64,000 bases of DNA from an uncultured Clostridia bacterium (GCA_934129745.1 CAKOWZ010000004.1:10334-74333); one strand, 5' to 3'. Positions 2,089-59,882 are shown, numbered from the stretch's first letter. Numbers and translations are program-made. Notes: a model not told the origin generated them from the sequence alone.

Positions 2089-3321
2089 GTGAAAAATTCT
2101 AATACAAAGAAAAATCAACATAAGGAAGGAAAAATAAAAATGGGGAAAAACAAAAAAACAAAATTTAGAAGTTTTATGAAAAAATATATTATTGTATTAT
2201 GTATTTTAGCAGTAATATTTTTAGCATATGTAATGAACACTTTATATCAATATGAAGATTCATTTACAGATACATACATGAATTCATATATTACAGATTT
2301 ATCAGAATCAGCTAAAAGTGGCAAAATAGATAAATATTGTAATTTTGAAAATATTCAAGTTAATGAATTTGAAACAAATAAAGATGGTGCAAAACAATCT
2401 TTAGAAAATATAATAAAAACATCAAATATAAGTTATAAATTAGAAGATGCTAATAAAACAACACAAGAACCAGTATATGGAATTTATGCAAATGATCAAA
2501 AAATAATGGATGTAACATTAAGTGTAAAAAAACAAAATAAAAGATTGAGTTTATTTACATATCCAACATGGCAAGTAAAACAAACAAATGTAAATAGTGG
2601 AAGAGGTATGTTTTATTATGATATTTTAGTTCCAAGTAATTATACAGTTACTGTAAATTCAAATAAATTATCAGAAAAAAATATATCTGAGACAAAAACA
2701 GATGAAGATTATGAAATTTTAGCTAAATATGCAAATTTACCTAAAATGGTAAATTATAAATTAGATAATTTTGTTACAAATCCAGAAATAAAAATTTCTG
2801 ATGAAAATGGAAAAGAAGTTAAATTTTCAGTAAATAATCATAAAATAGAATTAAGTTCATTACATAAATCTGTAAATACATATGATGAAGCAAAACAATA
2901 TTTACAAGCAGAAATTGATGTATTAGAATTAGCTAAAAAATGGAGCTTATTTTTAACAGATGATTTAACTGGACCAAGACATGGATTTAATGAATTAAGT
3001 AATTCATTAGTTAAAGATACTGAATTATATAATATGGCATATAGTTGGGCAACAAGTGTAGATATTACATTTACAAGTAAACATACATTCAAAAATCCAG
3101 CTTTCACAAATACTAGTGTAAAAGATTTTGAAATATATGGGAAAAATGCATTTTCATGTACAGTTTATTTAGAAAAAAATATGTTAATTGCTAATGGAAA
3201 TGATAAAATTGATGTTATGCATGATAAATTATATTTTGCATATATAGATGATACAAAAGATGGTAAAGATAATCCACAATGGAAAATGGTTGCAATGAAA
3301 GCTGTAACAGATAATAAATAA
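2089..3321 (+). CDS. hypothetical membrane-anchored protein (single N-terminal TM, large extracytoplasmic part)
   Basis: Long ORF with native codon bias, tightly packed after the previous gene. The start is uncertain (an in-frame ATG at about 2137 is also possible). No family recognised. Confidence 0.6.
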   Translation: MKNSNTKKNQHKEGKIKMGKNKKTKFRSFMKKYIIVLCILAVIFLAYVMNTLYQYEDSFTDTYMNSYITDLSESAKSGKIDKYCNFENIQVNEFETNKDGAKQSLENIIKTSNISYKLEDANKTTQEPVYGIYANDQKIMDVTLSVKKQNKRLSLFTYPTWQVKQTNVNSGRGMFYYDILVPSNYTVTVNSNKLSEKNISETKTDEDYEILAKYANLPKMVNYKLDNFVTNPEIKISDENGKEVKFSVNNHKIELSSLHKSVNTYDEAKQYLQAEIDVLELAKKWSLFLTDDLTGPRHGFNELSNSLVKDTELYNMAYSWATSVDITFTSKHTFKNPAFTNTSVKDFEIYGKNAFSCTVYLEKNMLIANGNDKIDVMHDKLYFAYIDDTKDGKDNPQWKMVAMKAVTDNK

Positions 3322-3366
3322 GATTTATGTTATAAAAATCTTTAGAGAAAGGAGTGTATAAAATAT

Positions 3367-4461
3367 TTGGTTTTTATATCAAATATTTTATACAAAAAGA
3401 AAATGATAAATGATGTATGTTTAATCATACCTGCATATAATCCTGATGAACAATTATTTATAGATTTTTTAGGAAAGGCAATACGAAATTTTTATAATAT
3501 TATTGTTATAGATGATGGCAGTGATGAAGAATATAAAAATATTTTTGATAAAATTCATATTAGATTTCCAAAAATAAAAATATTGGAACATGGGGTAAAT
3601 CTTGGAAAAGGAAGAGCTTTAAAAACTGCATTTAATTATTATTTAAACAAATATTCAGATTGTATAGGTGTTGTTCAAGCAGATTGTGATGGACAACATG
3701 ATATAGATGATGTTGTGAAATGTGCTAGAAAACTATATTTTGAACCTGATAAATTTATTTTAGGTGTACGTGATTTTTCATCAGATGATGTTCCTAAAAA
3801 AAGTAAATATGGAAATAATATTACAAAATATGTGTTTAAATTATTTATTGGAATAAATATTTCAGATACTCAAACAGGATTACGTGCAATGTCTAATAAA
3901 CTTATAAAAATATTTTTATCAATTAAAGGAGAAAGATATGAATATGAGACAAATGTTTTAATTGAATGTAAAGAAAAAAATATAGAAATATCAGAGGTTC
4001 CAATAAAAACAATTTATATTGAAAAAAATCAAACAAGTAAATTCAATCCACTTAAGGATTCTCTAATGATTTATAAATTGTTTGGAAAATATATTTTTGC
4101 GTCACTTAGTGCTTTTGTAATAGATATAATTTTGTTTAATTTATTTATTGTATTAGTAAATAATATTGAATTTTCATATAAAATTGTTGTAGCAACAATT
4201 TTGGCTAGAATTATCTCATCATTATATAATTTTAAAATTAATGCAAAAATGGTATTTAAAAACATGAATAAAAATTCTTTTATAAAATATGTAATTTTAG
4301 TATTAATTCAAATGATGGTTTCAGCATTTAGTGTGCAATTTTTAAGCAGGGTTTTACCAATAAATACTACAGTAATTAAGATTATTGTTGATGCAATTAT
4401 TTTTATGGTTAATTTTGTTGTACAAAGAGAAATTGTTTTTAAAAATAAGAAAAAAATTTAG
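3367..4461 (+). CDS. family-2 glycosyltransferase fused to a GtrA-like membrane domain
   Basis: N-terminal GT-A fold motifs (IIPAYNP, VIDDGSDE, QADCDGQHD, LRA). The C-terminal roughly 130 aa is a 4-TM GtrA-like region. Confidence 0.85.
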   Translation: MVFISNILYKKKMINDVCLIIPAYNPDEQLFIDFLGKAIRNFYNIIVIDDGSDEEYKNIFDKIHIRFPKIKILEHGVNLGKGRALKTAFNYYLNKYSDCIGVVQADCDGQHDIDDVVKCARKLYFEPDKFILGVRDFSSDDVPKKSKYGNNITKYVFKLFIGINISDTQTGLRAMSNKLIKIFLSIKGERYEYETNVLIECKEKNIEISEVPIKTIYIEKNQTSKFNPLKDSLMIYKLFGKYIFASLSAFVIDIILFNLFIVLVNNIEFSYKIVVATILARIISSLYNFKINAKMVFKNMNKNSFIKYVILVLIQMMVSAFSVQFLSRVLPINTTVIKIIVDAIIFMVNFVVQREIVFKNKKKI

Positions 4462-4496
4462 AAAATTTTGATATATGATATAGAAAGTATTGATAT

Positions 4497-5150
4497 ATGA
4501 TAAAAAGAAAGGAACAGAATATGAAAAAATATTTGAATTATGGAATAGCTGGAATATTATTTATACTAACAGCTATTATAATGGTGTTTATTAATAATGG
4601 AAGTATAGTAAGTTTTGATAATAAAATATATAGTATAGTAACAAATACAACAAATGTTTTTTTAGATAATATGTTTTTATTATTTACATTTTTTGCAAGT
4701 ACTAAATTTGTAATTGGAGCATGTGTTGCACTTTTAATTTTTATGAAAAATAAAAAAAATGCTGGAATCATGGTAGGAAGTGTTATAATCTCAACAATTA
4801 CTAATGTTATTATAAAAAATATATTTAAAAGACCACGACCAAATGTTAGAAGACTAGTAATAGAAAAATCTTTTAGTTTCCCAAGTGGACATACAATGGC
4901 AAGTGTTACTTTATATGGAATTTTGATTTTCTTTATTTTAAAATCAAATTTAAATAAAACAGCTAAAACTATATTATCAATATTATTAGGCTTAATGCCA
5001 ATTTGTGTTGCAATCAGTAGAATCTATCTAGGTGCACACTTTGCAAGTGATGTTATTGGTGGTGCATTTATAGCCAGTGGTTTATTATTATGTGAGGTTA
5101 CAATTATCGGGCAATTGGGGACGCGTCCTAATTGCTCAAATGAACAATAG
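4497..5150 (+). CDS. PAP2-family lipid phosphate phosphatase (undecaprenyl-PP / phosphatidate phosphatase-like)
   Basis: PAP2 motifs KxxxxxxRP (KNIFKRPRP), PSGH (SFPSGHTMAS) and SRxxxxxHxxxD (SRIYLGAHFASDV). The likely start is the ATG at 4521. The last roughly 13 codons are encoded by the palindromic repeat element. Confidence 0.85.
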   Translation: MIKRKEQNMKKYLNYGIAGILFILTAIIMVFINNGSIVSFDNKIYSIVTNTTNVFLDNMFLLFTFFASTKFVIGACVALLIFMKNKKNAGIMVGSVIISTITNVIIKNIFKRPRPNVRRLVIEKSFSFPSGHTMASVTLYGILIFFILKSNLNKTAKTILSILLGLMPICVAISRIYLGAHFASDVIGGAFIASGLLLCEVTIIGQLGTRPNCSNEQ

Positions 5151-5167
5151 GGACGCGTCCCCAATTG
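5112..5167. repeat. palindromic repeat element, two-unit copy (CAATTGGGGACGCGTCC...GGACGCGTCCCCAATTG)
   Basis: 17-nt arms in inverted orientation around a 22-nt spacer. Same family as 9731, 22418 and 59681. Confidence 0.85.
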
Positions 5168-5189
5168 TTCAAGGAAAGCTGGAAATAGG

Positions 5190-8100
5190 ATGAGTGAAAT
5201 AACAGAAAAATTAATTCAAGATATTTTTGCTGATTTTAAGCAAGGTGGGAATTTATTGAAATCAGTGATTAAAAAAATTAACTTATATAAAAAAACTAAT
5301 AGGTTTGAGATTTTGCTTCAATCAGATTTACCAATAGATATAAAAGAGGTTCATAATTTTGAAATATATCTAATGGAAAGGTTTAAATTTGAAGTTGTTA
5401 TTATTAAAATTGAATATACAGAACAACCAGATATTGATATTGTTTCTAAATGGGAGGATATTATTAATTATATGTCTTTTAAATATCCATCAGTTAAGGC
5501 GATTTTGAGGAATTCTGTTATTGAATTTGAGAATGATAATAAAACAATAAAAGTAAATCTTCAATTAAAGGGTTCTGAGATTTTGTATGCAAGGGGTATT
5601 GATAAAACATTTTCTGAGATAATTTATAATATTTATGGAAAAAGATTTTTGATAAAATATTTTGATAATGAGTCAAAAGAAAGAGTGGAACAATATAAGG
5701 AAAATGCTAGAAGGCTTGAAGAAGAGGCTATTAGAAAGGCAAATCAGGAGGCTGTTGCACAACGTAGAGAGTCTATGGCTGAGGAAAGAAAACAGGTTGA
5801 AGCTAGAGAACAGGAATTATTGGCTAGAAGAAATGGTTCACAAAATGGAAACTCTAATGGGACAAGTGGAAGTAAAGGTCAAGGGGAAAATACTGGAAAC
5901 GTTAGAAATTCTGGAAATGCTGGAGGTAATGGAAGTGTTGGAAATAAATCATCAATTCAGCAGATAGCGCCACCACCACCTCCTTTACCACCACAAACAG
6001 ATGATGAAGAATCTCCTTTAATTTATGGAAGAAATACAAATATAAAAGATCCATTATTAAAAGTTGTTGATTTATCAATAGATACAGGAAAAGCATGTAT
6101 TGATGGTGAGATTGTAAATATAGGAGAAGTTCGTGAATTAAAAACAGGAAAATTTTTAATTCCATTTGATGTTTATGATGGTTCAAGTACAATTACATGT
6201 AAAATTTTTGCTAAACCAGAAGAAAATAAACAAATAATGAAAAGACTTAAAAACGCTGCAGGAGTAAGAGTAGCTGCTAATGTACAATTTGATCCATTTG
6301 CAAAAGAGTTAGGGGCAATTGCAAATACAGTTATAGAAACGCAAGGAATGAAAAAAGTTTCTAGAAAAGATGAAAGCCCAGTAAAAAGAGTTGAATTACA
6401 TATGCATACACAAATGAGTCAAATGGATGCAATGACATCTGCAAAAGATTTAATAAAAAGAGCTATGAAATGGGGAATGAAATCAATTGCAATAACTGAT
6501 CATGGTGTTGTTCAAGCATTTCCAGAAGCACATAAATTATTAGGTTTTAATAATCCAGACATGAAAATAATTTATGGTGTTGAAGCATATTTAGTTCCAG
6601 ATAAAACACCAATAGTATCATGTTCAAAAGGTCAAGATATTGATACAACATATTGTGTACTTGATTTAGAAACAACAGGTCTTTCATTTAGAACAGACAA
6701 AATTACTGAAGTTGGAATTATGAAAGTAAAAAATGGTGAAGTAATTGATGAATTTAGTTGTTTTGTAAATCCAGAAAAACCAATACCACCAGAAGTTGTA
6801 AAAGTTACAAATATAACAGATGATATGGTAAAAGATGCAGAAACAATTGATAAAGTATTTCCAAAAATTCTAGAATTTATAGGTGATTCAGTTTTAGTTG
6901 CACATAATGCAGATTTTGATATTCCATTTTTAAAATATCATGGGAATTTACTAGGTTATGAATTAAATAATACATATATGGATACTTTAAGACTTGCAAA
7001 AGCCTTATTTCCGCAATTTACAAAATATAAATTAGGTTTTATTGCAGATAAATTAGGAATAAAAGTAGATGTAGCACATAGAGCTTTAGATGATGTTGAC
7101 ACAACAGTAAAGGTTTTAAATGTTATGATGGGAATGTTAAAAGAAAAAGGTGCTAAAACAATTGATGATATTGATGTTGTAACAGATAAAGATGAATCAA
7201 AAGAAATGTATAAAAAATTACCAACATATCATGCAATAATTCTTGCAAAAAATTATGTAGGATTAAAAAATTTATATAAATTAGTATCAATTTCACATTT
7301 ACATTATTTTTACAGAAAACCACGTATATTAAAATCTTTATATAGAAAATATTCAGAAGGATTAATATTAGGAAGTGCTTGTGAAGCTGGTGAATTATAT
7401 AGAGCAATTATTGGTGGAAAAACAGAAGATGAAATTGAACAAATTGCATCAGATTATGATTATCTAGAAATTCAGCCAACAGGAAATAATATGTTTATGG
7501 TAAGAAATGGCACAGTTCCTGATGTTAAAGCATTAGAAGATATTAATAGAAAAATAGTTGATTTAGGTGAAAAACTTGGAAAACCAGTTGTTGCAACATG
7601 TGATGTTCATTTTATGGACCCTCAAGATGAAGTTTATAGACGTATTTTAATGGCTGGTCAGGGATTTGAAGATGCTGATGAACAGGCACCTTTATATTTA
7701 AGAACAACTGAAGAAATGCTTAAAGAATTTCAATATTTAGGGGAGAAAAAAGCATATGAAGTTGTTGTTGAAAATACAAATAAAATTTCTGATATGTGTG
7801 AAAGAATAAGTCCAATATCACCAGAAAAATGTCCTCCATATATTGATAATTGTGAACAAACAATCAAAGATATTGCATATAATAAAGCACATGAATTATA
7901 TGGTGATCCATTACCAGATATTGTTCAAGAAAGATTAGATAAAGAGCTTGATTCAATTATAAAAAATGGATTCTCAGTTATGTATATCATAGCACAAAAA
8001 TTAGTATGGAAATCTAATGAAGATGGATATTTGGTTGGTTCAAGAGGTTCTGTTGGATCATCATTTGTTGCTAATATGACTGGTATTACAGAAGTTAATT

Positions 8101-9725
8101 CATTACCACCACATTATAGATGCCCAAATTGCAAACATTCCGATTTTACAGATTATGGCTATAAAAATGGTTTTGATTTACCAGATAAAATTTGTCCAAA
8201 ATGTGGCACAAAATATGATAAAGATGGAATGGATATTCCATTTGAAACATTCCTTGGATTTAATGGTGATAAAGAGCCTGATATTGACTTAAACTTTTCT
8301 GGAGAATATCAAGCAAAAGCACATAAATATACAGAAGTAATTTTTGGAAAAGGAACAACTTTTAAAGCTGGAACAGTTGGTACAGTTGCTGATAAAACTG
8401 CATATGGATATGTTCAAAAATATTTTGAAGAAAGGGGAATACCAGCAAGCCGTGCGGAAATTTCTAGATTATCACAAGGATGTACAGGAATAAAAAGAAC
8501 AACAGGACAACATCCAGGTGGAATTATTGTTGTTCCAAAAGGAAGAGAAATTTATGAATTTACTCCAATTCAGCATCCAGCAGATGATCCAAATTCAGAT
8601 ATTATAACAACACATTTTGATTATCACTCAATTGACCAAAACCTTTTAAAATTAGATATTCTTGGTCATGATGATCCAACAATTATAAGGATGCTTCAAG
8701 ATATTACAGGTGTTGATCCACAAAAAATACCATTAGATGATCAAGAAACAATGTCTATTTTTTCATCAACAAAAGCATTGGGAATAACACCAGAACAAAT
8801 TAAGTCAACTGTTGGAAGCTTTGGTGTTCCAGAATTTGGAACAAAATTTGTAAGAGGAATGCTTGTTGATACAAAACCAACAACATTTGATGAATTAATA
8901 CGTATTTCAGGATTATCACATGGTACAGATGTGTGGTTAGGAAATGCTCAAAGTTTAATTGAAGATGGAACTGTTACATTAAATGAGGCAATTTGCTGTA
9001 GGGATGATATTATGATTTATCTAATAAAAAAAGGATTACCACCAAACCATGCTTTTAAAATAATGGAAACAGTTCGTAAAGGAAAAGCTTTGAAAGACCC
9101 TGCAAAATGGGCAGAATATAAAGAATTAATGAAAGAACACGATGTTCCAGCTTGGTATATAAAATCTTGTGAAAAAATTAAATACATGTTCCCAAAAGCA
9201 CATGCTGCAGCATATGTAACAATGGCTTTTAGAATTGCATGGTTTAAAGTACATATTCCAAAAGCATATTATTCAGCATATTTTTCAATAAGAGCTAAAC
9301 AATTTGATAGTGAAATAATGTGTCATGGAAAAGATCGTGTAAAAAATAAAATGAAAGAAATTGAACTTGCTGGAAATAGTGCTACAAACAAAGACCAAGA
9401 GATGTATCCTGTTTTGGAATTAGTATTGGAAATGTATGAAAGAGGTATAAATTTCTTACCAATAGATTTGTATAAATCACATAATTCTAAATTTATAATG
9501 GAAGATGAAGGAATTCGCCCACCATTAGATAGTATTCCAGGACTTGGTCCAATTGATGCTGAAAATATTTATAAAGCTCGTCAAGATGGGAAGTTTATGT
9601 CAATTGATGATTTGAAAATACGTTCTAAGGTTGGAAAGGTCGCTATTGAAACTATGAAAAGTGTTGGATTACTTGATGGTATGACTGAGAGTAATCAAAT
9701 GAGTTTGTTTACTACTTGGGGATAG
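5190..9725 (+). CDS. polC: DNA polymerase III PolC-type (PHP, 3'-5' exonuclease, polymerase core)
   Basis: Full-length match to PolC architecture: PHP (VELHMHTQMS), exonuclease (YCVLDLETTGLS, AHNADFDIPFL, HRALDDVDTT), Zn-finger (CPNCKHS...CPKCG) and polymerase core (GSRGSVGSSFVA, PDIDLNFS). Confidence 0.97.
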   Translation: MSEITEKLIQDIFADFKQGGNLLKSVIKKINLYKKTNRFEILLQSDLPIDIKEVHNFEIYLMERFKFEVVIIKIEYTEQPDIDIVSKWEDIINYMSFKYPSVKAILRNSVIEFENDNKTIKVNLQLKGSEILYARGIDKTFSEIIYNIYGKRFLIKYFDNESKERVEQYKENARRLEEEAIRKANQEAVAQRRESMAEERKQVEAREQELLARRNGSQNGNSNGTSGSKGQGENTGNVRNSGNAGGNGSVGNKSSIQQIAPPPPPLPPQTDDEESPLIYGRNTNIKDPLLKVVDLSIDTGKACIDGEIVNIGEVRELKTGKFLIPFDVYDGSSTITCKIFAKPEENKQIMKRLKNAAGVRVAANVQFDPFAKELGAIANTVIETQGMKKVSRKDESPVKRVELHMHTQMSQMDAMTSAKDLIKRAMKWGMKSIAITDHGVVQAFPEAHKLLGFNNPDMKIIYGVEAYLVPDKTPIVSCSKGQDIDTTYCVLDLETTGLSFRTDKITEVGIMKVKNGEVIDEFSCFVNPEKPIPPEVVKVTNITDDMVKDAETIDKVFPKILEFIGDSVLVAHNADFDIPFLKYHGNLLGYELNNTYMDTLRLAKALFPQFTKYKLGFIADKLGIKVDVAHRALDDVDTTVKVLNVMMGMLKEKGAKTIDDIDVVTDKDESKEMYKKLPTYHAIILAKNYVGLKNLYKLVSISHLHYFYRKPRILKSLYRKYSEGLILGSACEAGELYRAIIGGKTEDEIEQIASDYDYLEIQPTGNNMFMVRNGTVPDVKALEDINRKIVDLGEKLGKPVVATCDVHFMDPQDEVYRRILMAGQGFEDADEQAPLYLRTTEEMLKEFQYLGEKKAYEVVVENTNKISDMCERISPISPEKCPPYIDNCEQTIKDIAYNKAHELYGDPLPDIVQERLDKELDSIIKNGFSVMYIIAQKLVWKSNEDGYLVGSRGSVGSSFVANMTGITEVNSLPPHYRCPNCKHSDFTDYGYKNGFDLPDKICPKCGTKYDKDGMDIPFETFLGFNGDKEPDIDLNFSGEYQAKAHKYTEVIFGKGTTFKAGTVGTVADKTAYGYVQKYFEERGIPASRAEISRLSQGCTGIKRTTGQHPGGIIVVPKGREIYEFTPIQHPADDPNSDIITTHFDYHSIDQNLLKLDILGHDDPTIIRMLQDITGVDPQKIPLDDQETMSIFSSTKALGITPEQIKSTVGSFGVPEFGTKFVRGMLVDTKPTTFDELIRISGLSHGTDVWLGNAQSLIEDGTVTLNEAICCRDDIMIYLIKKGLPPNHAFKIMETVRKGKALKDPAKWAEYKELMKEHDVPAWYIKSCEKIKYMFPKAHAAAYVTMAFRIAWFKVHIPKAYYSAYFSIRAKQFDSEIMCHGKDRVKNKMKEIELAGNSATNKDQEMYPVLELVLEMYERGINFLPIDLYKSHNSKFIMEDEGIRPPLDSIPGLGPIDAENIYKARQDGKFMSIDDLKIRSKVGKVAIETMKSVGLLDGMTESNQMSLFTTWG

Positions 9726-9730
9726 GTTGG

Positions 9731-9754
9731 CAATTGGGGACGCGTCCCCAATTG
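9731..9754. repeat. palindromic repeat element, minimal perfect 24-bp palindrome CAATTGGGGACGCGTCCCCAATTG
   Basis: Perfectly self-complementary and 5 nt after the polC stop. It shares the CCCCAATTGTTCAA flank with the copy at 5150-5170. Confidence 0.9.
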
Positions 9755-9774
9755 TTCAAAAAAAACACCAGCAA

Positions 9775-10014
9775 TTATACGCCGGTGTTTTTGGGTGGTA
9801 TTACCCGAATCAGACAATCTCCATCCTGGATAATGTTGAGCTTTTCATTGCCGTATTTGTCGGTAACAATACAGGATTCGAGGTATTCTGGGGTATACAT
9901 TACTGTAAATGCTTCGCCAAGACGTTTGAAGTCTATGCTACCATTGGAAAGACGATGCACTTGGATAGAACTGATACCTAAACTCATTCCGTAATTGCTT
10001 AAAGATTGTGACAT
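9775..10014 (-). CDS. hypothetical small protein, possible HTH at the N-terminus, in a GC-richer segment
   Basis: 79-aa ORF with a strong RBS (the reverse complement of cctcc at about 10022-10026). The composition is clearly GC-richer than the neighbours. LGISSIQVHRLSNGS resembles an XRE-type recognition helix, but weakly. Confidence 0.55.
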   Translation of the reverse strand: MSQSLSNYGMSLGISSIQVHRLSNGSIDFKRLGEAFTVMYTPEYLESCIVTDKYGNEKLNIIQDGDCLIRVIPPKNTGV

Positions 10015-10207
10015 AATATACCTCCTTTAGGATTTGATAAAAAAATTATAACATATTAATTGTGAAAAGTAAATGAAATTTGTAATTGTAGTATAATTTT
10101 TTTGATCTGGGTTATATTTTTTGAAAATTATATTATTGGGAATTGTATTATATTTTTTGGGAATTTTTGAAGAATATTTTTCAGGAGTTTTTTTCAGAAA
10201 TATTTTA

Positions 10208-10282
10208 AAAACCTCTGGCATGATGTACTGTAACTCAAAAAACATTTGATTTTTTGAGTAGTACATAGTCAGAGGTTTTTTA
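10208..10282 (-). terminator. long imperfect hairpin terminator downstream of the 310-aa minus-strand gene
   Basis: The outer arms (aaaacctctg...) are complementary, and there is an inner perfect 9-bp stem (ctcaaaaaa / ttttttgag). It lies directly 3' of the stop at 10286, with T-rich sequence on the minus strand. Confidence 0.55.
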
Positions 10283-10285
10283 GAT

Positions 10286-11218
10286 TTAGAAATCAGGGTT
10301 TACAACAAGCAGTCCCATTTCTTTAGGAAGAATACGGACTGAGTTTTCATCAGGAGCCACATAGTTAAGAAGTGATCTTGTTATATGTGTGTAATATTCC
10401 TGAAGTGAGTACTTGTGGCCAGAGAGAATGAAGTTCCATTCCTCAAAAAGAACTACTTTCTGGTGTGTGTATGGATTCTTATACTGTTTCCAATGATAAG
10501 GAAAATGTCGACTCCTTACCTTAAGGACAAACTGCACACTGTCTTTGGTTTTTTGGATTGCAATAAGTGAACCGTGTAAAGTATGTTTTTCAATAAGTTC
10601 ACCCATTTTTTGGTCAAAAAACTTATCAAATTCAATCTGAGCTCTTCTGAATTGTTGATTTTTCCGACAAAGGGCGGTTTCTACTGATGAGATTCCAAGC
10701 TGAGTATTATGCTTGATATCTTTGATTTTTTGAATTTTGTCAGAATATTCAGATTTGGCAGCAGTTTTGCAGTTTGATTTTGTAAGAACACTGTCTAATA
10801 CAGTGTCTTTAGGAGTAACCATTTTCAAAAGTTCATTTGGAGTCATTTCAGCTGCTTTTTTGTCTTTAGATTTTTTGTCATTTTCTAAAGCATAAATCAT
10901 TAGATTTAGATCTTCATCAGCTGAAGCAACAGGTGAATCAACAGGTGAAACAACAGCTGAATCAACACGTGAATCTGTACTTTGTACATCAGTTGTTTCA
11001 TTTGAAAGTTCAGTTTCAGAAATATCAGAATTATTTACTGACTTATTAGCAGAACCATCAACTGAAATTTTGGATGTTGAATCATCAGAAATTGGATTTT
11101 CGATAATTGCTACATCAATGCTGTCTGATGTCCCTTTTGCAGAGGTTACAGGTGCTTTTACCTGAGTTTCATCTGCAGATGTTAAGTGGTTGTTGTTGTT
11201 TGTGACATTCGTATTCAT
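10286..11218 (-). CDS. hypothetical protein (S/D/T-rich disordered N-half, structured C-half), GC-richer, likely horizontally acquired
   Basis: 310-aa ORF. Its composition and codon usage differ from native genes, including an in-frame CGG Arg codon (tgt cgg aaa). No family recognised. Confidence 0.6.
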   Translation of the reverse strand: MNTNVTNNNNHLTSADETQVKAPVTSAKGTSDSIDVAIIENPISDDSTSKISVDGSANKSVNNSDISETELSNETTDVQSTDSRVDSAVVSPVDSPVASADEDLNLMIYALENDKKSKDKKAAEMTPNELLKMVTPKDTVLDSVLTKSNCKTAAKSEYSDKIQKIKDIKHNTQLGISSVETALCRKNQQFRRAQIEFDKFFDQKMGELIEKHTLHGSLIAIQKTKDSVQFVLKVRSRHFPYHWKQYKNPYTHQKVVLFEEWNFILSGHKYSLQEYYTHITRSLLNYVAPDENSVRILPKEMGLLVVNPDF

Positions 11219-18379: not shown

Positions 18380-19261
18380 ATGAATGAACAAATAAAACTA
18401 TTTTTGAAGTTTCTTCAAAATGACAAGAAATTATCAGATAATACACTTCAATCATATAAAAGAGATATAACTCAATTTGAAAAATATGTTGAAGAAAATC
18501 AAGTAGATTATACAAAAGTAGATGAAAAAGAAATAAAAGAATATTTAGAATACCTACAAGAAATCGGAAAAAAATCATCAACAGTTTCAAGAAATTTAGC
18601 ATCAATCAGGTCTTTCTATCAATATTTAGTTAGAAATAAAAAGGTTTTAGTAGATCCAACAAATAATGTGCAAGCACCTAAAATTGAAAAAAGAGTACCA
18701 AGTATATTAACAGCAAGTGAAGTAGAATTACTTTTAGAACAACCACAAAATGTTGATTTAAAAGGAATTAGAGATAAGGCTATGTTAGAATTTGCATATG
18801 CAACAGGAATGAGAGTTACAGAAATTATATCTTTAAATTTAGAAGATGTAAATTTTGAAGAAGCTTATGTAAGTTGTAAAACAGGTACAAAACAAAGAAA
18901 TATTCCTTTAGGAACATTATCTTTAAAAGCTTTAAAAACTTATGTAGAAGATGCTCGTCCATATATTATTAAAGATGATGGTGTTAAAGCATTATTTGTA
19001 AATGTAAATGGAAAAAGATTAACAAGACAAGGATTTTGGAAAATAGTTAAATATTATAAAGAACAAGCTCATATAACAAAAGATATTACACCACATGTTC
19101 TAAGACATTCTTTTGCAACACATTTATTACAAAATGGTGCAGATTTAAAAGCAATTCAAACAATGCTTGGACATTCAGATATTTCTTCAACTCAAGTATA
19201 TATGCAATTTCAAGATGAAGGATTGAAAAATATTTATAAAAATACACATCCTAGAGCTTAA
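18380..19261 (+). CDS. xerD: tyrosine recombinase XerD
   Basis: N-terminal SAM-like domain plus a catalytic domain with R...HxLRHSFATHLL...GHSDISSTQVY. Linkage with spoIIM is as in Bacillus. Confidence 0.9.
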   Translation: MNEQIKLFLKFLQNDKKLSDNTLQSYKRDITQFEKYVEENQVDYTKVDEKEIKEYLEYLQEIGKKSSTVSRNLASIRSFYQYLVRNKKVLVDPTNNVQAPKIEKRVPSILTASEVELLLEQPQNVDLKGIRDKAMLEFAYATGMRVTEIISLNLEDVNFEEAYVSCKTGTKQRNIPLGTLSLKALKTYVEDARPYIIKDDGVKALFVNVNGKRLTRQGFWKIVKYYKEQAHITKDITPHVLRHSFATHLLQNGADLKAIQTMLGHSDISSTQVYMQFQDEGLKNIYKNTHPRA

Positions 19262-51592: not shown

Positions 51593-53161
51593 GTGGATTT
51601 GTTTGATATAAATAAAATAATTAATAGATTAAAAAATCAAATTAAAGACGGAGTATTGGAACAGAAGAGAAAAGCTAAAGGTAACAATGTAAAATCGTAT
51701 AAACTGGAACCTAAAAAAATTAGTGTTACAAAATTAAAAAAAATAGCAGAATTAAATAAAAAGAAATATTCAAAATTTGATTTTAAAGTAATGCAAAACT
51801 TTATATATGAATTTGAAATTACATGTGGTAAATTTTTAAGCCAAGCAGAATTAGCGCAGAGATTAATGGAAAACTTTAATGGTTGTATATTTGGTTTGGA
51901 AAGTGATAATTATGTAGCTGCATATCTTTGTGGAGAGGGTAAAAAAAATCATAATGTTGAAATAGCTAGAGATAAATTTATAGAATGCGATTCTAATACA
52001 AGGAAATCTATATTATTTCATGAATTGATGCATGCAGTTACATATAATTTGAAGTATAATTGTGTTGGCTTTGAAAAATTATTAAATAAGGACGAGAAAA
52101 AGAAGACAGCATTTGTTGGTAAAGGAATTAATGAAGCAGTTGTTGAATATGTAACTAATAAAAGAAATAAACTATTTCCATTACCACCAGATGCAGGTGT
52201 TAAGGTTGGTTTCTACGACTATGCACCAGAGCTAATTGAGGTTTTAGATAAATTTTTAAGTGAAGGGACTTTAATAAATACAATAATAAATGTACCACAA
52301 AATTTAAATGATGTTTTAGGAAACAAATCTACAGCTATTGTAAAAGGCTTAGATTACTTATTTTTAAATAATATGGATTGTAAGTATGATTGTAAATCAT
52401 CACAAAATTATTTAGATACGCAAAATTCCAGAAAAGTATATAGTTATGTTTTAAAAAATATAATTGAAATAAAGTGTAAGGATGAATTAGATTATAAGAA
52501 AAAAGTTTTGGTTACATTAGATACTCTTAAAAAATTATCAAAAGGCAAATTAAAAATTTGCAGTAATTATCCTATTTACGATTATTTATATACTAATATA
52601 GTAAGAGCTATAAAATCTGGTGTTCAATTTAAAGATATAGAATCTAACATTGATGAAGAACAAAAAAATATGATACATAAAAGTATAATAGTTCACAAAC
52701 TTAAACATTGCAAGAGTGATGAGTTAGTGAGGTTACTTAATGATAAAAAATATTTAAGATCGATAAAAAAAGTTTTCAAAGATGAAAATTTTGAAGTAAT
52801 TGATATGAATGCTTCATTCTATAATATGAATTTTAAACATACATTTATGGATGATATATGTCAAATAGCTGGACTGAATGAAAATATAAATATTGAATTT
52901 TTACAATCAAATATAGCAAAAAAATTGGTCAAGAGAGGTATTGATTTGAGAAAAATAGAATTTGAAGAGTGTTATTCAAAAAGTTTACCTAATGGAACAT
53001 TTGGAACAAATATATTTGCTTTAAAAGAAGGGAAAAAAGAATATATTGGTACAGCTGTTAGTAAATGTAATAAAAAAGCAGATTATAAATTAGTACAATA
53101 TGATGATTATGATGAGAAAAGAGAAACAAAAGTACAATGGATAACAATAGGTAGTGAATAA
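51593..53161 (+). CDS. hypothetical protein with an HExxH zinc-metallopeptidase-like motif
   Basis: Long ORF. The GTG at 51593 is 7 nt after aggagg. ILFHELMHAVTYN is the only recognisable motif. Confidence 0.6.
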   Translation: MDLFDINKIINRLKNQIKDGVLEQKRKAKGNNVKSYKLEPKKISVTKLKKIAELNKKKYSKFDFKVMQNFIYEFEITCGKFLSQAELAQRLMENFNGCIFGLESDNYVAAYLCGEGKKNHNVEIARDKFIECDSNTRKSILFHELMHAVTYNLKYNCVGFEKLLNKDEKKKTAFVGKGINEAVVEYVTNKRNKLFPLPPDAGVKVGFYDYAPELIEVLDKFLSEGTLINTIINVPQNLNDVLGNKSTAIVKGLDYLFLNNMDCKYDCKSSQNYLDTQNSRKVYSYVLKNIIEIKCKDELDYKKKVLVTLDTLKKLSKGKLKICSNYPIYDYLYTNIVRAIKSGVQFKDIESNIDEEQKNMIHKSIIVHKLKHCKSDELVRLLNDKKYLRSIKKVFKDENFEVIDMNASFYNMNFKHTFMDDICQIAGLNENINIEFLQSNIAKKLVKRGIDLRKIEFEECYSKSLPNGTFGTNIFALKEGKKEYIGTAVSKCNKKADYKLVQYDDYDEKRETKVQWITIGSE

Positions 53162-53268
53162 GATTTTATATAAATATATTACAATTTTGTAAAAGAAAAA
53201 TTGTTTGGAATTAAAAAATAGATATTTGACATGGTGAAATCAAATATCAATATAGACCTTTTTAATTT

Positions 53269-53463
53269 TTCGTAAAGTATCTAACTTTATGATAAAAGAG
53301 CAAAACCTAGATTAGTTGATATATCAGCTAATCTAGGCTTTAATTTTTTTTAGTTTCTCTTAAAAATTTTTTTGATATTTAATTTCAAAAAGTATTGAAA
53401 AATTTACTATATTACGATATAATTTAATTAGTATTAAATTCATAAAGTTAGATACTTTACGAA
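53269..53463 (+). promoter_or_regulatory. IR-flanked promoter cassette 2 (candidate invertible promoter), currently facing the 53487 gene
   Basis: Arms ttcgtaaagtatctaactttatga (53269-53292) and tcataaagttagatactttacgaa (53440-53463) are 24/24 complementary. The core has an internal 10-bp hairpin (cctagattag / ctaatctagg) and a promoter: TTGAAA (53395-53400), 17 bp, TATAAT (53418-53423). Confidence 0.6.
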
Positions 53464-53486
53464 TGAAAGATTGAAGGAGTACCAGT

Positions 53487-53732
53487 ATGGAAGGTAGTGA
53501 AATTGGAAAATACTTTGAAGAACACGGCGATGAAATAAATGAAATGCTTAAAAGAAAAGAACAAGAAAACAATCAAAGAATAGAAGAAGAAAAAAGCAAT
53601 ATGGTTATAGGAAGTTATTTCCATGAACATGGAGAAGAAGTTAGAAAAATATTAATAAGAAAATCTTTCAGCGATAAAGTAAAAGCAGAAGAAAAAGCAA
53701 AGGAAGAATTAAAAGTAATGGAGGAAAAATAA
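53487..53732 (+). CDS. small protein with two copies of the (S/G)xYFxEHGEE...RK motif
   Basis: 81 aa. MEGSEIGKYFEEHGDEINEMLKRK and MVIGSYFHEHGEEVRKILIRKSF are both homologous to the N-terminus of the 45662 protein. Confidence 0.55.
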   Translation: MEGSEIGKYFEEHGDEINEMLKRKEQENNQRIEEEKSNMVIGSYFHEHGEEVRKILIRKSFSDKVKAEEKAKEELKVMEEK

Positions 53733-53939
53733 ATGGAGTGGTATGAAATAATGATGCTTATTTTAATTGGTTTAATTTTTATAGGAGGTGCGGGATTTGG
53801 TACATGGTATGTCTTAAGACAAAATAAATCAATAATGGATAGAGCAAGAAAAATCGATCCTACAGTAAAAACATTAGCTGATGCTCAATATGTATTACGA
53901 AAAGACATATTACAAAATGTTGGGAAAAATAAAGAATAA
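53733..53939 (+). CDS. small single-pass membrane protein
   Basis: 68 aa. The start abuts the previous stop (taa atg). It has one TM helix. Confidence 0.5.
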   Translation: MEWYEIMMLILIGLIFIGGAGFGTWYVLRQNKSIMDRARKIDPTVKTLADAQYVLRKDILQNVGKNKE

Positions 53940-54099
53940 TTACTTTATTATATAATAAAAAAGTGTAATTGATTAGTTCGTTGAGGAATAAAGAATATTG
54001 GTTGAAAATCATTCTACCTTTTTGTATAATAAATTTATAAACTAAATAGTAATTTATAGATAAAAATATAGTTCAGTTTAGTAAAAAAACTCAATATAT

Positions 54100-54128
54100 T
54101 TGCAATTAATATAAAACTGTGGTATGAT
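54100..54128 (+). promoter_or_regulatory. strong promoter of the GC-rich 54234 gene
   Basis: TTGCAA (54100-54105), 17 bp, then extended -10 TGgTATGAT (54120-54128). Confidence 0.5.
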
Positions 54129-54233
54129 ATAAGCATCATATATGTATAACGCTACTTATACAGAAAATAAATTATAAAAATTTTCTGGAGGGGTAGCGTA
54201 ACCTCCAGAGCGTATTACTTAGGAGGTAATAAT

Positions 54234-54947
54234 ATGATCGGATTCGGTAAATTTTCAAAAAAGGCAGATACTAAAATAATTACATCCCTCACCGACAATC
54301 GTTTGGTGAAAATCGACCCACAGGAGCCTGGTTTCTTTGATGAAGTTCTTCTTAACTTCAAGTCAACAAATAAAAGTATCAATGATTTTATTGAAGCAGT
54401 TGCTGAGGTTAAGGAGGCGAGAATTGAAGCTTTCTACAAACCAATTTATGATCCTTCTGATGCTGGTGACCACCGGGTTACTTATATGAAGGGAATGAGA
54501 CCTGCGACAGGTCATAGTTACAATTGGTGGGTTAAAACAGCCTCTAATATGCCTGCAGTTGAAGGTCGGCACTGGTGTGTGGCTACAGAATATAAGTATT
54601 ATGCCTTTTTAGTATGGCTGATTAATCAACTGATCAAAGCTGAAACTTTAGAGGAAACCTTGAATCAAATAATAATCGACTCGATAGAGTTAGGGCATTA
54701 TGATAATTCTAAAGGCTCAACTAATGGGAAGTATTTAGAACCAACGGGATCAAGATGTATTTGCGGGATTTATGATCTTGGTAATGTATTTAAAATTCTG
54801 GCATGCTCGAATCAGGAAGCCGGAGGCTTATGGCTTGGTGGTGGCGTTTACTTTCGTGATGGCCACAACCTTCCGCTTGCCAACCTCTACCATCTCACTA
54901 ATGTAGATGGTGACGACAATTTTAGTGTGGGTATGCTTGTGCTTTAA
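54234..54947 (+). CDS. hypothetical protein in a clearly GC-richer (foreign) segment
   Basis: 237-aa ORF with a perfect RBS (aggagg). Some 60-nt stretches are about 50% G+C by eye, and it uses in-frame CGG twice (cac cgg gtt; ggt cgg cac). No family recognised. Confidence 0.65.
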   Translation: MIGFGKFSKKADTKIITSLTDNRLVKIDPQEPGFFDEVLLNFKSTNKSINDFIEAVAEVKEARIEAFYKPIYDPSDAGDHRVTYMKGMRPATGHSYNWWVKTASNMPAVEGRHWCVATEYKYYAFLVWLINQLIKAETLEETLNQIIIDSIELGHYDNSKGSTNGKYLEPTGSRCICGIYDLGNVFKILACSNQEAGGLWLGGGVYFRDGHNLPLANLYHLTNVDGDDNFSVGMLVL

Positions 54948-55019
54948 GTAGCACTGCTCACTGAAAAGAATCCAAACGAGTAGGGGACTTGCTTTGCAGG
55001 TCCTGTATTCATGTATGTA

Positions 55020-55545
55020 GAAAGGCAAAAATATGAAGTATTTAGTAATATCAGATATATATTATGCTAAAAAATAGAAGAAATTATTGGTAGAGAAAAT
55101 CCGAACAAGATAATTTTATTGGAGGATTTGTATTATAATAACAATTTTAGAAATATTGATTCTGAGAATAATAAACCTAAAGAAGTTGCTAAAATTTTAA
55201 ATAAATATAAGGATATTATTTTATGTACAAAGGGAAATTGTGATAGAAAAGTTGATGAAGATATTTCAGAATTTAATATAGAGGAATATATTGTGTTAAA
55301 AATCAATAATAAAGATGTTTTTTGCAGTCATGGACATATATATAATTCAGATAATGTTCCACCAATAGGGGATATTGTTTTATATGGTCATTTCTATACA
55401 GGATTTATTAAGGAAGAATATGGAATTGTATTTGCAAGTCCTGGATCAATTGCTTTTCCAAGAGGTGGAAGTAGGAACAGCTATTTGATAATTGATAATG
55501 AAACTTTAATTTTGAAAGATGTTGAGGGGAATATTATTGATGAGT
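55020..55545 (+). repeat. direct repeat DR2-b (degraded phosphoesterase gene copy)
   Basis: Partner of 50642-51180, with a 13-bp deletion near the start and scattered substitutions. Confidence 0.9.
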
Positions 55546-55595
55546 TTTTGCAAATACGCTTAAATAATGTGTATAGAAAAATAAAAAAAGTATAG
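55033..55595 (+). pseudogene. YfcE-type phosphoesterase pseudogene (second copy)
   Basis: The DIHGD region has been deleted (atatcagatatatatt versus atatcagacatacatggtgatatatatt), giving an early stop. There is a GHFH to GHFY change and a different C-terminus. Confidence 0.8.
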
Positions 55596-55650
55596 TAAAA
55601 GAAAGTTTTTTATGGTAAAATAAATAAAAAGCATAGGAGATGATTTTTAT

Positions 55651-55827
55651 ATGAGTGATAAACAATTAATTTTAAATACAGTTGCACAAATTGATGATGC
55701 TACAAGTTATGAAGAAATATTATATGCTCTATATCTGCAATATGAAGTTACAAAAGGAATTAAAGATATGGAAAATGGTAATGTAAAAACTAGTGAAGAA
55801 GTAAAGGAGATTATTAAAAAATGGTAG
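55651..55827 (+). CDS. putative type II antitoxin-like small protein
   Basis: 58 aa. The C-terminal pattern (KGIKDMENGNVKTSEEVKEIIKKW) resembles the addiction-module antitoxins paired with RelE/ParE toxins. The stop overlaps the next ATG. The assignment is from memory. Confidence 0.4.
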   Translation: MSDKQLILNTVAQIDDATSYEEILYALYLQYEVTKGIKDMENGNVKTSEEVKEIIKKW

Positions 55828-55904
55828 TTTGGTCAGATACATCAATAATGCATATAACAGGCAGATGGAACACCATACAATTGAAGAGCAGTTATAAGCA
55901 ATGA
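55821..55904 (+). pseudogene. possible truncated RelE/ParE-like toxin remnant
   Basis: The ATG overlaps the antitoxin stop (atggtag), and MVVWSDTS resembles toxin N-termini. The ORF ends after 27 codons. Confidence 0.25.
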
Positions 55905-56022
55905 AAGAAAAATACGAATTTTCTAATTTATTATTAATTGTTAGTGAATGTCTAGAATAATATAGTATCAAAATCACACCTCCAATCATATTATACAAAA
56001 AATATGATTGGAGGTTTACTAT

Positions 56023-56890
56023 ATGGATTATGAAATAATGATGAACGGAAATGTAAAAATAGGACAAAAGGCTCCAAATTTTGAAGCAAGAACTACAATG
56101 GGAAATGTACAATTATCAGATTATCAGGGAAAATGGGTTGTCTTTTTCTCACATCCAGGTGACTTTACCCCAGTATGTACAACTGAAATAATAGCATTTT
56201 CAAAATCAAACAAATATTTTGAACAACTAAACACGCAGCTATTACGGAATAAGTATAGACTCAATACCATCTCATCTAGAATGGGTATATAACATATATT
56301 GTATGACAGGAATAAAAGTACCATTTCCTATAATAGCAGACAGAAGCGGTGAAATTGCAAGAAAATATGGAATGATTGCAACAGATATAAGTAATACAGA
56401 AACAGTAAGAAATGTATTTATAATAGATGATAAAGGAATTGTCAGAACAATTTTAGTATATCCAATGAATGTTGGAAGATGGATTCCTGAAATATTGCGT
56501 ATTGTTCAAGCTTTACAAGTAGCAGACAATAATAAAGCTTCAACACCAGCAAATTGGATTCCATGTAACCCAGTTATAATGCCAATTCCAACTACTTTTG
56601 ACAGATTAATGGAAAGAAGAAAACAAATTCAAGAAGGAATTGTTGGTGGAATGAATTGGTATTTAGGGTTTAAAAATCCTGATAAATGTTCGAAAATTTA
56701 TGATAAAGTTGAAAATTCAAACAATATTAATCATATAGGAATCAGTGAAAACAATAGTGAAAGTAGTTGTGGTTGCGGAAACAATAGAGAAAATAATAGA
56801 GGAAATAATAGAGAAAATAGTATTGGAACTTCAGCAAATAACAGTGGAAAAAGTACTGAAAACCAAAAAAACAATAAACCAACCACCTGA
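56023..56890 (+). pseudogene. peroxiredoxin (1-Cys/Prx6-like) with an N/S/R-rich Cys-containing tail, interrupted by a +1 frame break at in-frame CGG 56245-56247
   Basis: FFSHPGDFTPVCTTE active site. Skipping C56245 restores ...LNTQLL-GISIDSIPSHLEWVYNI...FPIIADRSGEIARKYGMI. ATG 56023 follows ggagg. Confidence 0.85.
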
Positions 56891-59676: not shown

Positions 59677-59680
59677 TGTG

Positions 59681-59737
59681 CAATTGGGGACGCGTCCCTG
59701 TTGCATGCATCGTGCAATTAGGACGTGTCCCCAATTG
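59681..59737. repeat. palindromic repeat element, two-unit copy
   Basis: caattggggacgcgtccc ... ggacgtgtccccaattg with gtg/cac flanks, 2-5 nt after the DUF1540 stop. Confidence 0.85.
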
Positions 59738-59882
59738 CACAGACAAAAAACGTTGATAAATTAAATGCAAATTATTGATTTTTTGTAAAAAATAATATAT
59801 AATAATAAACATAAAAGTTCTTACACCAGCTATGTATAGATGGTAAAAGTCTTTTAAATAATTATTTAAGGAGGTCATTATT

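Follow-up and report, generated by a model that had tools for sequence, protein, structure and literature searches.

The question raised by a 64,000-nucleotide stretch of DNA from an uncultured Clostridia bacterium (GCA_934129745.1 CAKOWZ010000004.1:10334-74333; hereafter the window) is whether a 195-bp segment at positions 53269-53463, bounded by inverted repeats and followed by a gene for an 81-amino-acid (81-aa) protein, is a genetic switch. A sequence-only reading of the window had proposed that this segment, cassette 2, is an invertible promoter whose repeats, or arms, serve as recombination sites. We find that the segment has inverted-repeat boundaries, occurs naturally in both orientations between unchanged flanks, and contains an internal promoter that, as judged from its sequence, faces the 81-aa gene in one orientation only. 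It is very probable that cassette 2 is an invertible promoter (inverton), and that it belongs to a family of such elements described below.

The two arms of cassette 2, located at 53269-53292 (left arm, TTCGTAAAGTATCTAACTTTATGA) and 53440-53463 (right arm, TCATAAAGT-TAGAT-ACTTTACGA(A)), are complementary at 24/24 nucleotides (nt), or 100%, with 147 nt between them. They form the longest perfect inverted repeat in the window among arms no more than 600 nt apart. The perfect 24-bp arms and the 195-bp cassette noted in the sequence-only reading are thus real features of the DNA, and the arms exceed the longest inverted repeat found in 60 first-order Markov simulations of the window, which is 17 nt. 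With dinucleotide shuffles, the expected number of chance matches is 0 both for the cassette 2 arm pattern and for the paired inner-arm pattern. The left arm contains a conserved 23-nt site (53270-53292), a dyad common to 17 arms, in which an outer half-site TCGTAAAGT (53270-53278) is joined by the spacer ATCTA (53279-53283) to an inner half-site ACTTTATGA (53284-53292).

The invertible core between the arms (53293-53439, 147 nt) contains no open reading frame (ORF). Its + strand carries a predicted sigma-70-type promoter at 53395-53423, with a -35 element TTGAAA (53395-53400), a 17-nt spacer, and a -10 element TATAAT (53418-53423). The promoter matches the consensus at 11/12 positions and, as had been described from the sequence, faces the 81-aa gene, which begins at 53487. 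Upstream of the promoter and in the same direction, a hairpin with a T-run (53306-53349, + strand; stem 53306-53337, 14 pairs) resembles a terminator. It is the sole terminator-like site in 53100-53600, where shuffled sequences are expected to yield 0.0, and its RNA fold has an energy of -22.4 kcal/mol (z -5.4). The opposite strand of the hairpin folds with -22.0 kcal/mol and is followed by UUUUGCUCUUUU. A search of 44000-56000 with the covariance models of Rfam 15, at E values up to 1, gave no match.

Orientation was determined in public contigs whose downstream proteins are exactly those of the window, by comparing the region between the arms with that in the window; these contigs are referred to by L numbers. 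For cassette 2, 12 independent contigs have arms, and 200-nt flanks on each side, identical to those of the window. The core is forward in ten of them (L001-4, L006-8, L010, and the JGI contigs L026 and L029). In the other two (L005, from SRR25571972, and L009, from SRR25477916) it is the exact reverse complement but for 1-2 strain single-nucleotide polymorphisms (SNPs), and in L005 the promoter points away from the 81-aa gene. A paralogous inverton in the window, cassette 1 (45437-45628), is inverted in 3/10 contigs (L012, L014, and L015, from MEGAHIT and SPAdes assemblies) and forward in seven (L011, L013, L016-20), while contig L023 has an orthologue of cassette 1, with 86% identity, whose orientation is likewise opposite to that in the window. 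Both cassettes therefore occur in two orientations with unchanged arms and flanks, as expected of an invertible promoter with the arms as recombination sites. Invariant orientation, which had been set beforehand as one of two refuting outcomes, is not what the contigs contain.

Strain variation within the core indicates that the inversion did not happen only once. A C-to-T SNP at 53415, present in L008 and L009, changes CGATATAAT to TGATATAAT and makes an extended -10 element. The two alleles and the two orientations are found in all four combinations (C forward in L001, T forward in L008, C inverted in L005, and T inverted in L009), and therefore inversion has recurred. Another strain SNP, A to G at 53305, lies immediately before the hairpin stem. 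In cassette 1 the arms differ at outer position 3, with TCG on the left and TCA on the right, and this mismatch stays in place in both orientations, so that strand exchange would occur inside that position.

Cassette 1 is complete, with 23-nt arms (45437-45459 and 45606-45628) that carry this one mismatch, the spacer ACTAT, a core of 146 nt, and a predicted promoter TTGCAA-16-TAAAAT with a TG at 45562-45589. The homology of its core to that of cassette 2, which the sequence-only reading had placed in the hairpin, the promoter, and the segment after the right arm, is upheld in all three parts, and the alignment runs on through the first ~25 downstream codons (MENSEIGKYFQEHGE / MEGSEIGKYFEEHGD). 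Cassette 3 (48498-48645, - strand) is a remnant that has a single arm (TCGTTAAGT-TACTT-ACTTTATGA, 48498-48520), a putative promoter at ~48537-48564 on the - strand, facing left, and a truncated hairpin. Because its second arm is missing, cassette 3 cannot invert. Five Logan contigs assembled with k=31 start at 45563, 99 nt upstream of the gene behind cassette 1, and we considered whether they represent mixed orientations. This interpretation was ruled out, since the cassette 3 remnant shares 32 identical nt with the cassette 1 promoter, which explains where the contigs start.

Scans for the dyad site and one pattern scan of metagenomes gave a family of eight complete cassettes plus some remnants. 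In addition to cassette 1 and cassette 2 (site at window position 53270; spacer ATCTA when read from outer to inner), complete cassettes are located in L023 at 2092 (spacer ACACT), 3625 (TGATT), 4775 (ACTAT), and 10836 (TGTTT), in L027 at 246 (TAGAT), and in L028 at 802 (TAGAT), and L023 has a lone arm at 8366 (ATGAT). The cassettes are ~193 bp long and homologous, with an identical half-site consensus throughout the family. The arms and the promoter are the best-conserved parts of the family alignment, and across nine cassettes the promoter (TATTGCAAA...TATGATAAAAT) is the best-conserved part of the core. Its family consensus, TATTGCAAA-N-TATGATAAAAT, corresponds to a -35 element TTGCAA and an extended -10 element. 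Other family members precede genes for surface proteins: the L027 cassette is upstream of a gene for an LRR_5 protein of 500 aa that carries an LPQTG anchor motif, and the L023 cassette at 10836 is upstream of a gene for a Big_2 protein.

In L023, four complete cassettes and the lone arm lie within 11 kb (2092-11028), the complete ones each before a different gene or operon, and the region looks like a dense phase-variable island. The Big_2 gene there sits behind a complete cassette and an LRR_5 gene behind the lone arm only, and a 380-aa gene product is 86% identical to the 381-aa protein encoded behind cassette 1 in the window. Scans of species-representative genomes with the pattern AATTTAATTAG-N8-TCATAAAGT gave two chance matches only, in a Saprospiraceae metagenome-assembled genome (MAG) and a Hermodarchaeota MAG. 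Among viral contigs, the single-arm pattern matched 28 lone sites without a partner arm, which were judged unrelated, and the general two-arm family pattern gave zero matches. In a plasmid database, similarity searches with the cassette DNA, with the 381-aa protein, and with a truncated recombinase that is described below all came back empty.

How the two arms of a cassette are related to each other bears on how the inversion could take place. Each arm is a 23-nt dyad composed of a 9-nt outer half-site (TCRTNAAGT), a 5-nt spacer, and a 9-nt inner half-site (ACTTNAYGA), with the inner consensus being the reverse complement of the outer one. Over 17 arms, the invariant positions are T,C,T,A,A,G,T in the outer half-site and A,C,T,T,A,G,A in the inner half-site. 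We counted mismatches in the eight complete cassettes, which come from the window, L023, and the two other metagenome contigs, L027 and L028. The spacers of the two arms never differ within a cassette (0/40), whereas they differ at 0.63 per site between cassettes (P 1.2e-4 when arms are re-paired by permutation). The inner half-sites likewise have no mismatches within cassettes (0/72), compared with 0.115 per site between them (P 6e-3), while the outer half-sites have 8/72 mismatches within cassettes and 0.075 per site between them (P 0.18). Within a single contig the spacers are all different (ACTAT, ATCTA, and TACTT in the window; ACACT, TGATT, ACTAT, and TGTTT in L023). The gene-distal outer half-site begins with TCG in 9/9 cassettes and the gene-proximal one with TCA in 5/8.

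The concerted change of the two arms that the sequence-only reading had pointed to is therefore real; the spacer carries most of it, and the inner half-site shows it more weakly. Its description of the outer part of the arms as what differs between cassettes was correct that a difference exists, but this difference is mainly in the central spacer (ATCTA in cassette 2 and ACTAT in cassette 1), with only one outer base in addition. The second refuting outcome, independent divergence of the arms in homologous cassettes, did not occur either in the decisive part of the arms, the spacer and the inner half-site; only the outer half-sites drift. This spacer pattern fits the idea that a single site-specific recombinase, shared by the cassettes, makes its crossover within the spacer.

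From these features, a mechanism can be proposed. The promoter faces the 81-aa gene in the window, and therefore the window would represent the ON state. In this state, transcription starting in the core would read through the right arm into the 81-aa gene and the 68-aa gene that follows, while the hairpin and T-run at the left end of the core would halt transcription from the upstream 532-aa gene and thereby insulate the promoter. A recombinase would bind the four half-sites of the two 23-nt sites and exchange strands in or next to the spacer, and the core would flip along with the inner half-sites. In the OFF state, represented by L005 and L009, the promoter would be directed at the 3′ end of the 532-aa gene, away from the switched genes, and the hairpin, which is predicted to fold on both strands, would stand directly before the 81-aa and 68-aa genes. 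Because all cassettes use the same half-sites, one recombinase encoded elsewhere presumably serves all of them. The two arms of a cassette would need matching spacers to recombine, and the differing spacers should stop recombination between separate cassettes. Strand exchange by tyrosine recombinases requires spacer identity between the partner sites. Natural Xer sites with identical spacers recombine despite differences in their half-sites, and those with differing spacers do not detectably do so (PMC9947245).

Could the two orientations have arisen in some other way? The inversion could be a rare, old polymorphism that has become fixed between strains, with no working switch today, which would agree with the finding that every contig has one orientation. 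However, the SNP at 53415 and the orientation occur in four combinations on otherwise identical flanks, and two paralogous cassettes and an orthologue of 86% identity are each polymorphic or flipped. The spacer and the inner half-sites are also perfectly kept in eight cassettes, in contrast with locked derivatives of the family that have lost one arm. We consider a fixed polymorphism unlikely for these reasons. Inversion without a dedicated recombinase, through homologous recombination, or template switching during replication, between the 24-nt repeats, appears slightly less likely again. Short inverted repeats can mediate rare inversions and no recombinase gene is adjacent to the cassette, but the arms consist of a conserved half-site dyad with a hypervariable spacer at unrelated loci, which points to recognition by a protein, and a length of 23-24 nt is short for exchange that depends on RecA.

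A de Bruijn graph whose k does not exceed the length of the arms is unable to orient a segment that inverted repeats enclose, and the inverted copies could in principle be artefacts of assembly. However, L005 and L009 are Logan contigs built with k=31, which is longer than the 24-nt arm, so that the junction k-mers existed in the reads. The same result was obtained in MEGAHIT k141 and SPAdes contigs from five samples, and overall the contigs represent different samples assembled in three ways (Logan k=31, MEGAHIT, and SPAdes), making an artefact very improbable. The terminal inverted repeats, the length of ~195 bp, and the presence of several copies would also suit a miniature inverted-repeat element of transposon origin (MITE), or the arms might be maintained as an RNA or DNA hairpin. 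Target-site duplications are absent at the arm ends, though, and the copies remain homologous beyond the right arm and within the gene that follows it. In addition, the core flips in place, and with the promoter inside the cassette its own transcript holds only one of the arms. We regard this last explanation as the least credible of all, and the selected hairpin that the sequence-only reading offered as an alternative is not needed once inversion is seen.

Some observations nevertheless weigh against cassette 2 being a working inverton of the proposed design. Both orientations are known between samples, and each contig has one orientation. A hairpin comparable to that of cassette 2 is strong in 4/8 cassettes (the stem type of cassette 2 is retained in cassette 2, L023b, and L027, and two of its pairs show G-C/T-A and C-G/T-A exchanges) and is weak or absent in the other half of the family, and therefore a terminator role would not be general. 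A crossover in the spacer would swap the inner half-sites but would not homogenise them, which leaves the asymmetry between identical inner and drifting outer half-sites unexplained. The cassettes of L027 and L028 share the spacer TAGAT and, if the two contigs belong to one genome, spacers are not private to each cassette. Finally, no recombinase gene adjoins any cassette, and the only one in the window is the XerD gene at 18380-19261.

That gene is the sole recombinase that Pfam scans identified among the larger ORFs of the window. It scores as an XerD equivalog, with 348 bits against a threshold of 329.6, and adjoins spoIIM; given this score and this neighbour, it is probably a housekeeping enzyme. 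Approximately 9 kb past the end of the window, contig L061 (scaffold_186) encodes a 421-aa phage-type integrase at 376-1641, beside secA and followed by a nucleotidyltransferase gene. The integrase has Arm-DNA-bind_4, SAM_3, and Phage_integrase domains and may mark the edge of an integrated element. We found no evidence linking either XerD or the 421-aa integrase to the cassettes. In contigs L068-71, a 134-aa truncated N-terminal domain of a tyrosine recombinase (Phage_int_SAM_4) adjoins a locked half-cassette. This remnant has no detectable relatives and no significant similarity to the 421-aa integrase, and it is only 30% identical to XerD over 63 residues. No resolvase-family gene is near the cassettes, and the only hint, a match to HTH_7 in the 381-aa protein, is below threshold (18.3 bits, with a cut-off of 23.8). 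A tyrosine recombinase is weakly favoured as the invertase, because the centre of the dyad coincides with a base of a spacer of odd length, which is unsuited to the 2-bp central stagger of serine recombinases, because inverton groups in Clostridia have been linked to tyrosine recombinases (PMC11892184), and because of the truncated tyrosine-recombinase domain beside the locked half-cassette.

The first gene that cassette 2 would control encodes 81 aa (53487-53732, + strand), with a ribosome-binding site AAGGAG at 53474-53479 and an ATG at 53487, and its product contains the motif IGxYFxEHGE twice. The second gene, encoding 68 aa (53733-53939, + strand), abuts the first, and its product has a hydrophobic N-terminal stretch that resembles a membrane helix. 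The 294-nt interval from the 68-aa gene to the following 237-aa gene yielded no terminator-like site, and the single such site in 53700-55100 is inside the 237-aa gene. The 237-aa gene is preceded by a separate, fixed promoter with 11/12 consensus matches (54002-54030) and is therefore not strictly under the cassette 2 switch. Cassette 1 is predicted to control the 381-aa gene at 45662-46807 and, probably, the genes for 138-, 170-, and 177-aa membrane proteins as well. The 381-aa protein has only ten detectable relatives, all metagenomic. Its AlphaFold model is all-helical with a pLDDT of 80.7, and comparison of the model with the PDB gave no fold match better than E 0.085 and TM 0.14. Neither the controlled nor the neighbouring genes had an above-threshold match in Pfam, NCBIfam, PHROGs, or PADLOC.

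The host is an uncultured gut member of the Clostridia with a G+C content of ~26% in which PolC and SpoIIM are present. The nearest named relatives of its ArgRS, at 79-85% identity, are labelled 'MAG: Clostridia bacterium', and the same species is represented in the NCBI assembly GCA_964329695.1. Strains differ in whether they carry the cassettes. Contigs L064 and L065 are without cassette 1 and the entire 3993-bp block that contains it (44982-48974), and have an empty site with one copy of the target. In the window, the block contains an 82-aa fusion ORF, a 76-aa ORF, the 381-, 138-, 170-, and 177-aa genes, the cassette 3 remnant, and a 65-aa ORF, and is flanked by a 176-bp direct duplication (44806-44981 and 48975-49150, 95% identity) of the 5′ end of a Peptidase_S11 gene. 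This duplication is too long for a normal transposon footprint. The same two contigs are without cassette 2 and its two small genes (53252-53993). A duplicated Metallophos (YfcE-like) gene encloses the cassette 2 region, the copies being at 50641-51194 and 55019-55595 in the window and at 6987-7526 and 12924-13424 in L064, with a 13-nt deletion near the 5′ end of the second copy. The cargo between them consists of the 81-, 68-, and 237-aa genes in the window, as opposed to genes for 99, 161, 586 (LRR_5), and 124 aa in L064 and L065.

Relatives of the 381-aa gene are found beside plasmid relaxases (Mob_Pre or MobC/relaxase genes) in L024 and L066 (445, 3341-4250), and also in other chromosomal contexts (L023, L068); the relaxase neighbours suggest that the gene block may belong to small mobilisable elements. 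Together with the 176-bp target duplication, they suggest that the switches may ride on small, strain-variable modules, so that phase-variable control and its cargo could be acquired horizontally. The locked derivatives in L068-L071 (L068 2295-2699, 2945-2967) have a 98%-identical gene behind only the right arm and a different, fixed promoter (TTGACC-17-TACAAT).

Other features of the window are recorded here as separate observations. The Peptidase_S11 gene, for a D-Ala-D-Ala carboxypeptidase, is split into two ORFs (49037-49480 and 49494-50366), as is an AhpC/peroxiredoxin gene (56008-56292 and 56303-56890). These splits are probably real and not sequencing errors, because the gene calls of other assemblies that include them have the same split. 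G+C-rich palindromes built on CAATTGGGGACGCGTCCCCAATTG are located at gene ends at 5112-5167 and 59677-59741, in contrast with the low G+C content of the genome, and may be a repeated palindromic element or terminators.

Short invertible segments are familiar from Clostridioides difficile, where they measure roughly 150-200 bp with ~21-bp inverted repeats, and several of these switches act after transcription initiation instead of by carrying a promoter. The C. difficile switches that the tyrosine recombinase RecV flips (among them cwpV/Cdi1 and flgB/Cdi4) likewise belong to the class Clostridia and are short, intergenic invertible segments with short inverted repeats. RecV is encoded away from its switches and serves several of them (PMC5903667), an arrangement that the cassettes described here would resemble if, as presumed, a distant recombinase is shared by several switches. 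The inverted repeats in C. difficile are mostly unrelated to each other, with the exception of Cdi2/Cdi5 (PMC5903667), whereas the present cassettes are homologous throughout, in their arms, promoter, and often hairpin, and differ mainly in the 5-nt spacer. Our analysis identified no orthologue of RecV. Inverton groups in gut bacteria share an inverted-repeat motif and a promoter motif, and the shared inverted-repeat motif implies a shared invertase (PMC11892184). These groups, in Bacteroides, Akkermansia, and Clostridia (groups 139 and 125), comprise many homologous invertible promoters per genome before surface-related genes (PMC11892184), as is the case here, although the cassettes are a different sequence family in an uncultured Clostridia lineage. 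A shallow literature search found no earlier report of a private spacer for each member within a common dyad.

In hix sites, the identity of the inverted repeats spans the inner half-site and the core while the outer half-sites differ, which recalls the pattern of the arms here. The 26-bp hix site consists of two imperfect half-sites around a short crossover core (PMC3798978), and the arms are similarly dyads of two half-sites around a short core. However, the Hin/hix system has an even-length 12-2-12 site with a 2-bp crossover, a Fis enhancer, and an invertase gene within a ~1-kb segment, as opposed to the odd-length 9-5-9 site and the 147-nt segment with no gene inside. The Hin/Gin/Cin class of serine invertases was rejected as a model, with no invertase gene in or beside the segment and the dyad axis on a base of the 5-nt spacer. 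The plasmid pdif sites of Acinetobacter and engineered lox and FRT sites are alike in that identical spacers are needed, half-site differences are tolerated, and differing spacers insulate sites from each other (PMC9947245). In the pdif sites, which follow an 11-6-11 layout, the XerC and XerD arms are distinct, and the flanked DNA consists of gene modules several kb long, whereas the 9-5-9 sites of the cassettes have near-symmetric half-sites and flank a promoter. The 28-bp Xer/dif site itself (an 11-nt XerC arm, a 6-nt spacer, and an 11-nt XerD arm) was also rejected given the 9-5-9 site with near-identical half-sites, and the idea that the arms are dif-like was dropped because cassette 1 does not share the seeming XerD-arm similarity of cassette 2. 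In Mycoplasma penetrans, Horino and colleagues reportedly described in 2003 homologous invertible promoters of ~135 bp, one for each mpl (P35) lipoprotein gene, which are said to be flipped independently by tyrosine recombinases encoded elsewhere and to have 12-bp inverted repeats. The mpl promoters control one paralogous lipoprotein family, and the cassettes here are placed before diverse genes. In function and design, cassette 2 is a classical inverton whose nearest counterparts are the RecV-dependent switches and the inverton groups with shared motifs.

We tentatively suggest, with somewhat less than even confidence, that the cassettes together form a switch regulon on a common dyad with private crossover spacers, carried on horizontally acquired modules and subject to an additional homogenising step or constraint. 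If so, the spacers would be a natural equivalent of heterospecific lox sites, and one enzyme could flip many promoters independently, with the intervening DNA neither inverted nor deleted. The strict inner half-sites, as against the drifting outer ones, would then reflect an unrecognised homogenising step or a constraint in the recombination reaction. The family provides a compact natural data set on the evolution of recombination sites, with fixed half-sites, spacers that match within and differ between cassettes, and an asymmetry between inner and outer half-sites. It also yields a search pattern for further switches (TCRTNAAGT-N5-ACTTNAYGA, as inverted pairs ~170 nt apart), and co-occurrence with such switches may reveal the recombinase. 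Public assemblies alone were sufficient to show the flip. The biological return is modest at present, since the genes behind cassette 2 are tiny and have no recognisable function. Far more work on phase variation has gone into Bacteroidota, E. coli, and C. difficile, and the cassettes add a clean, sequence-defined inverton family for an uncultured lineage of gut Clostridia.
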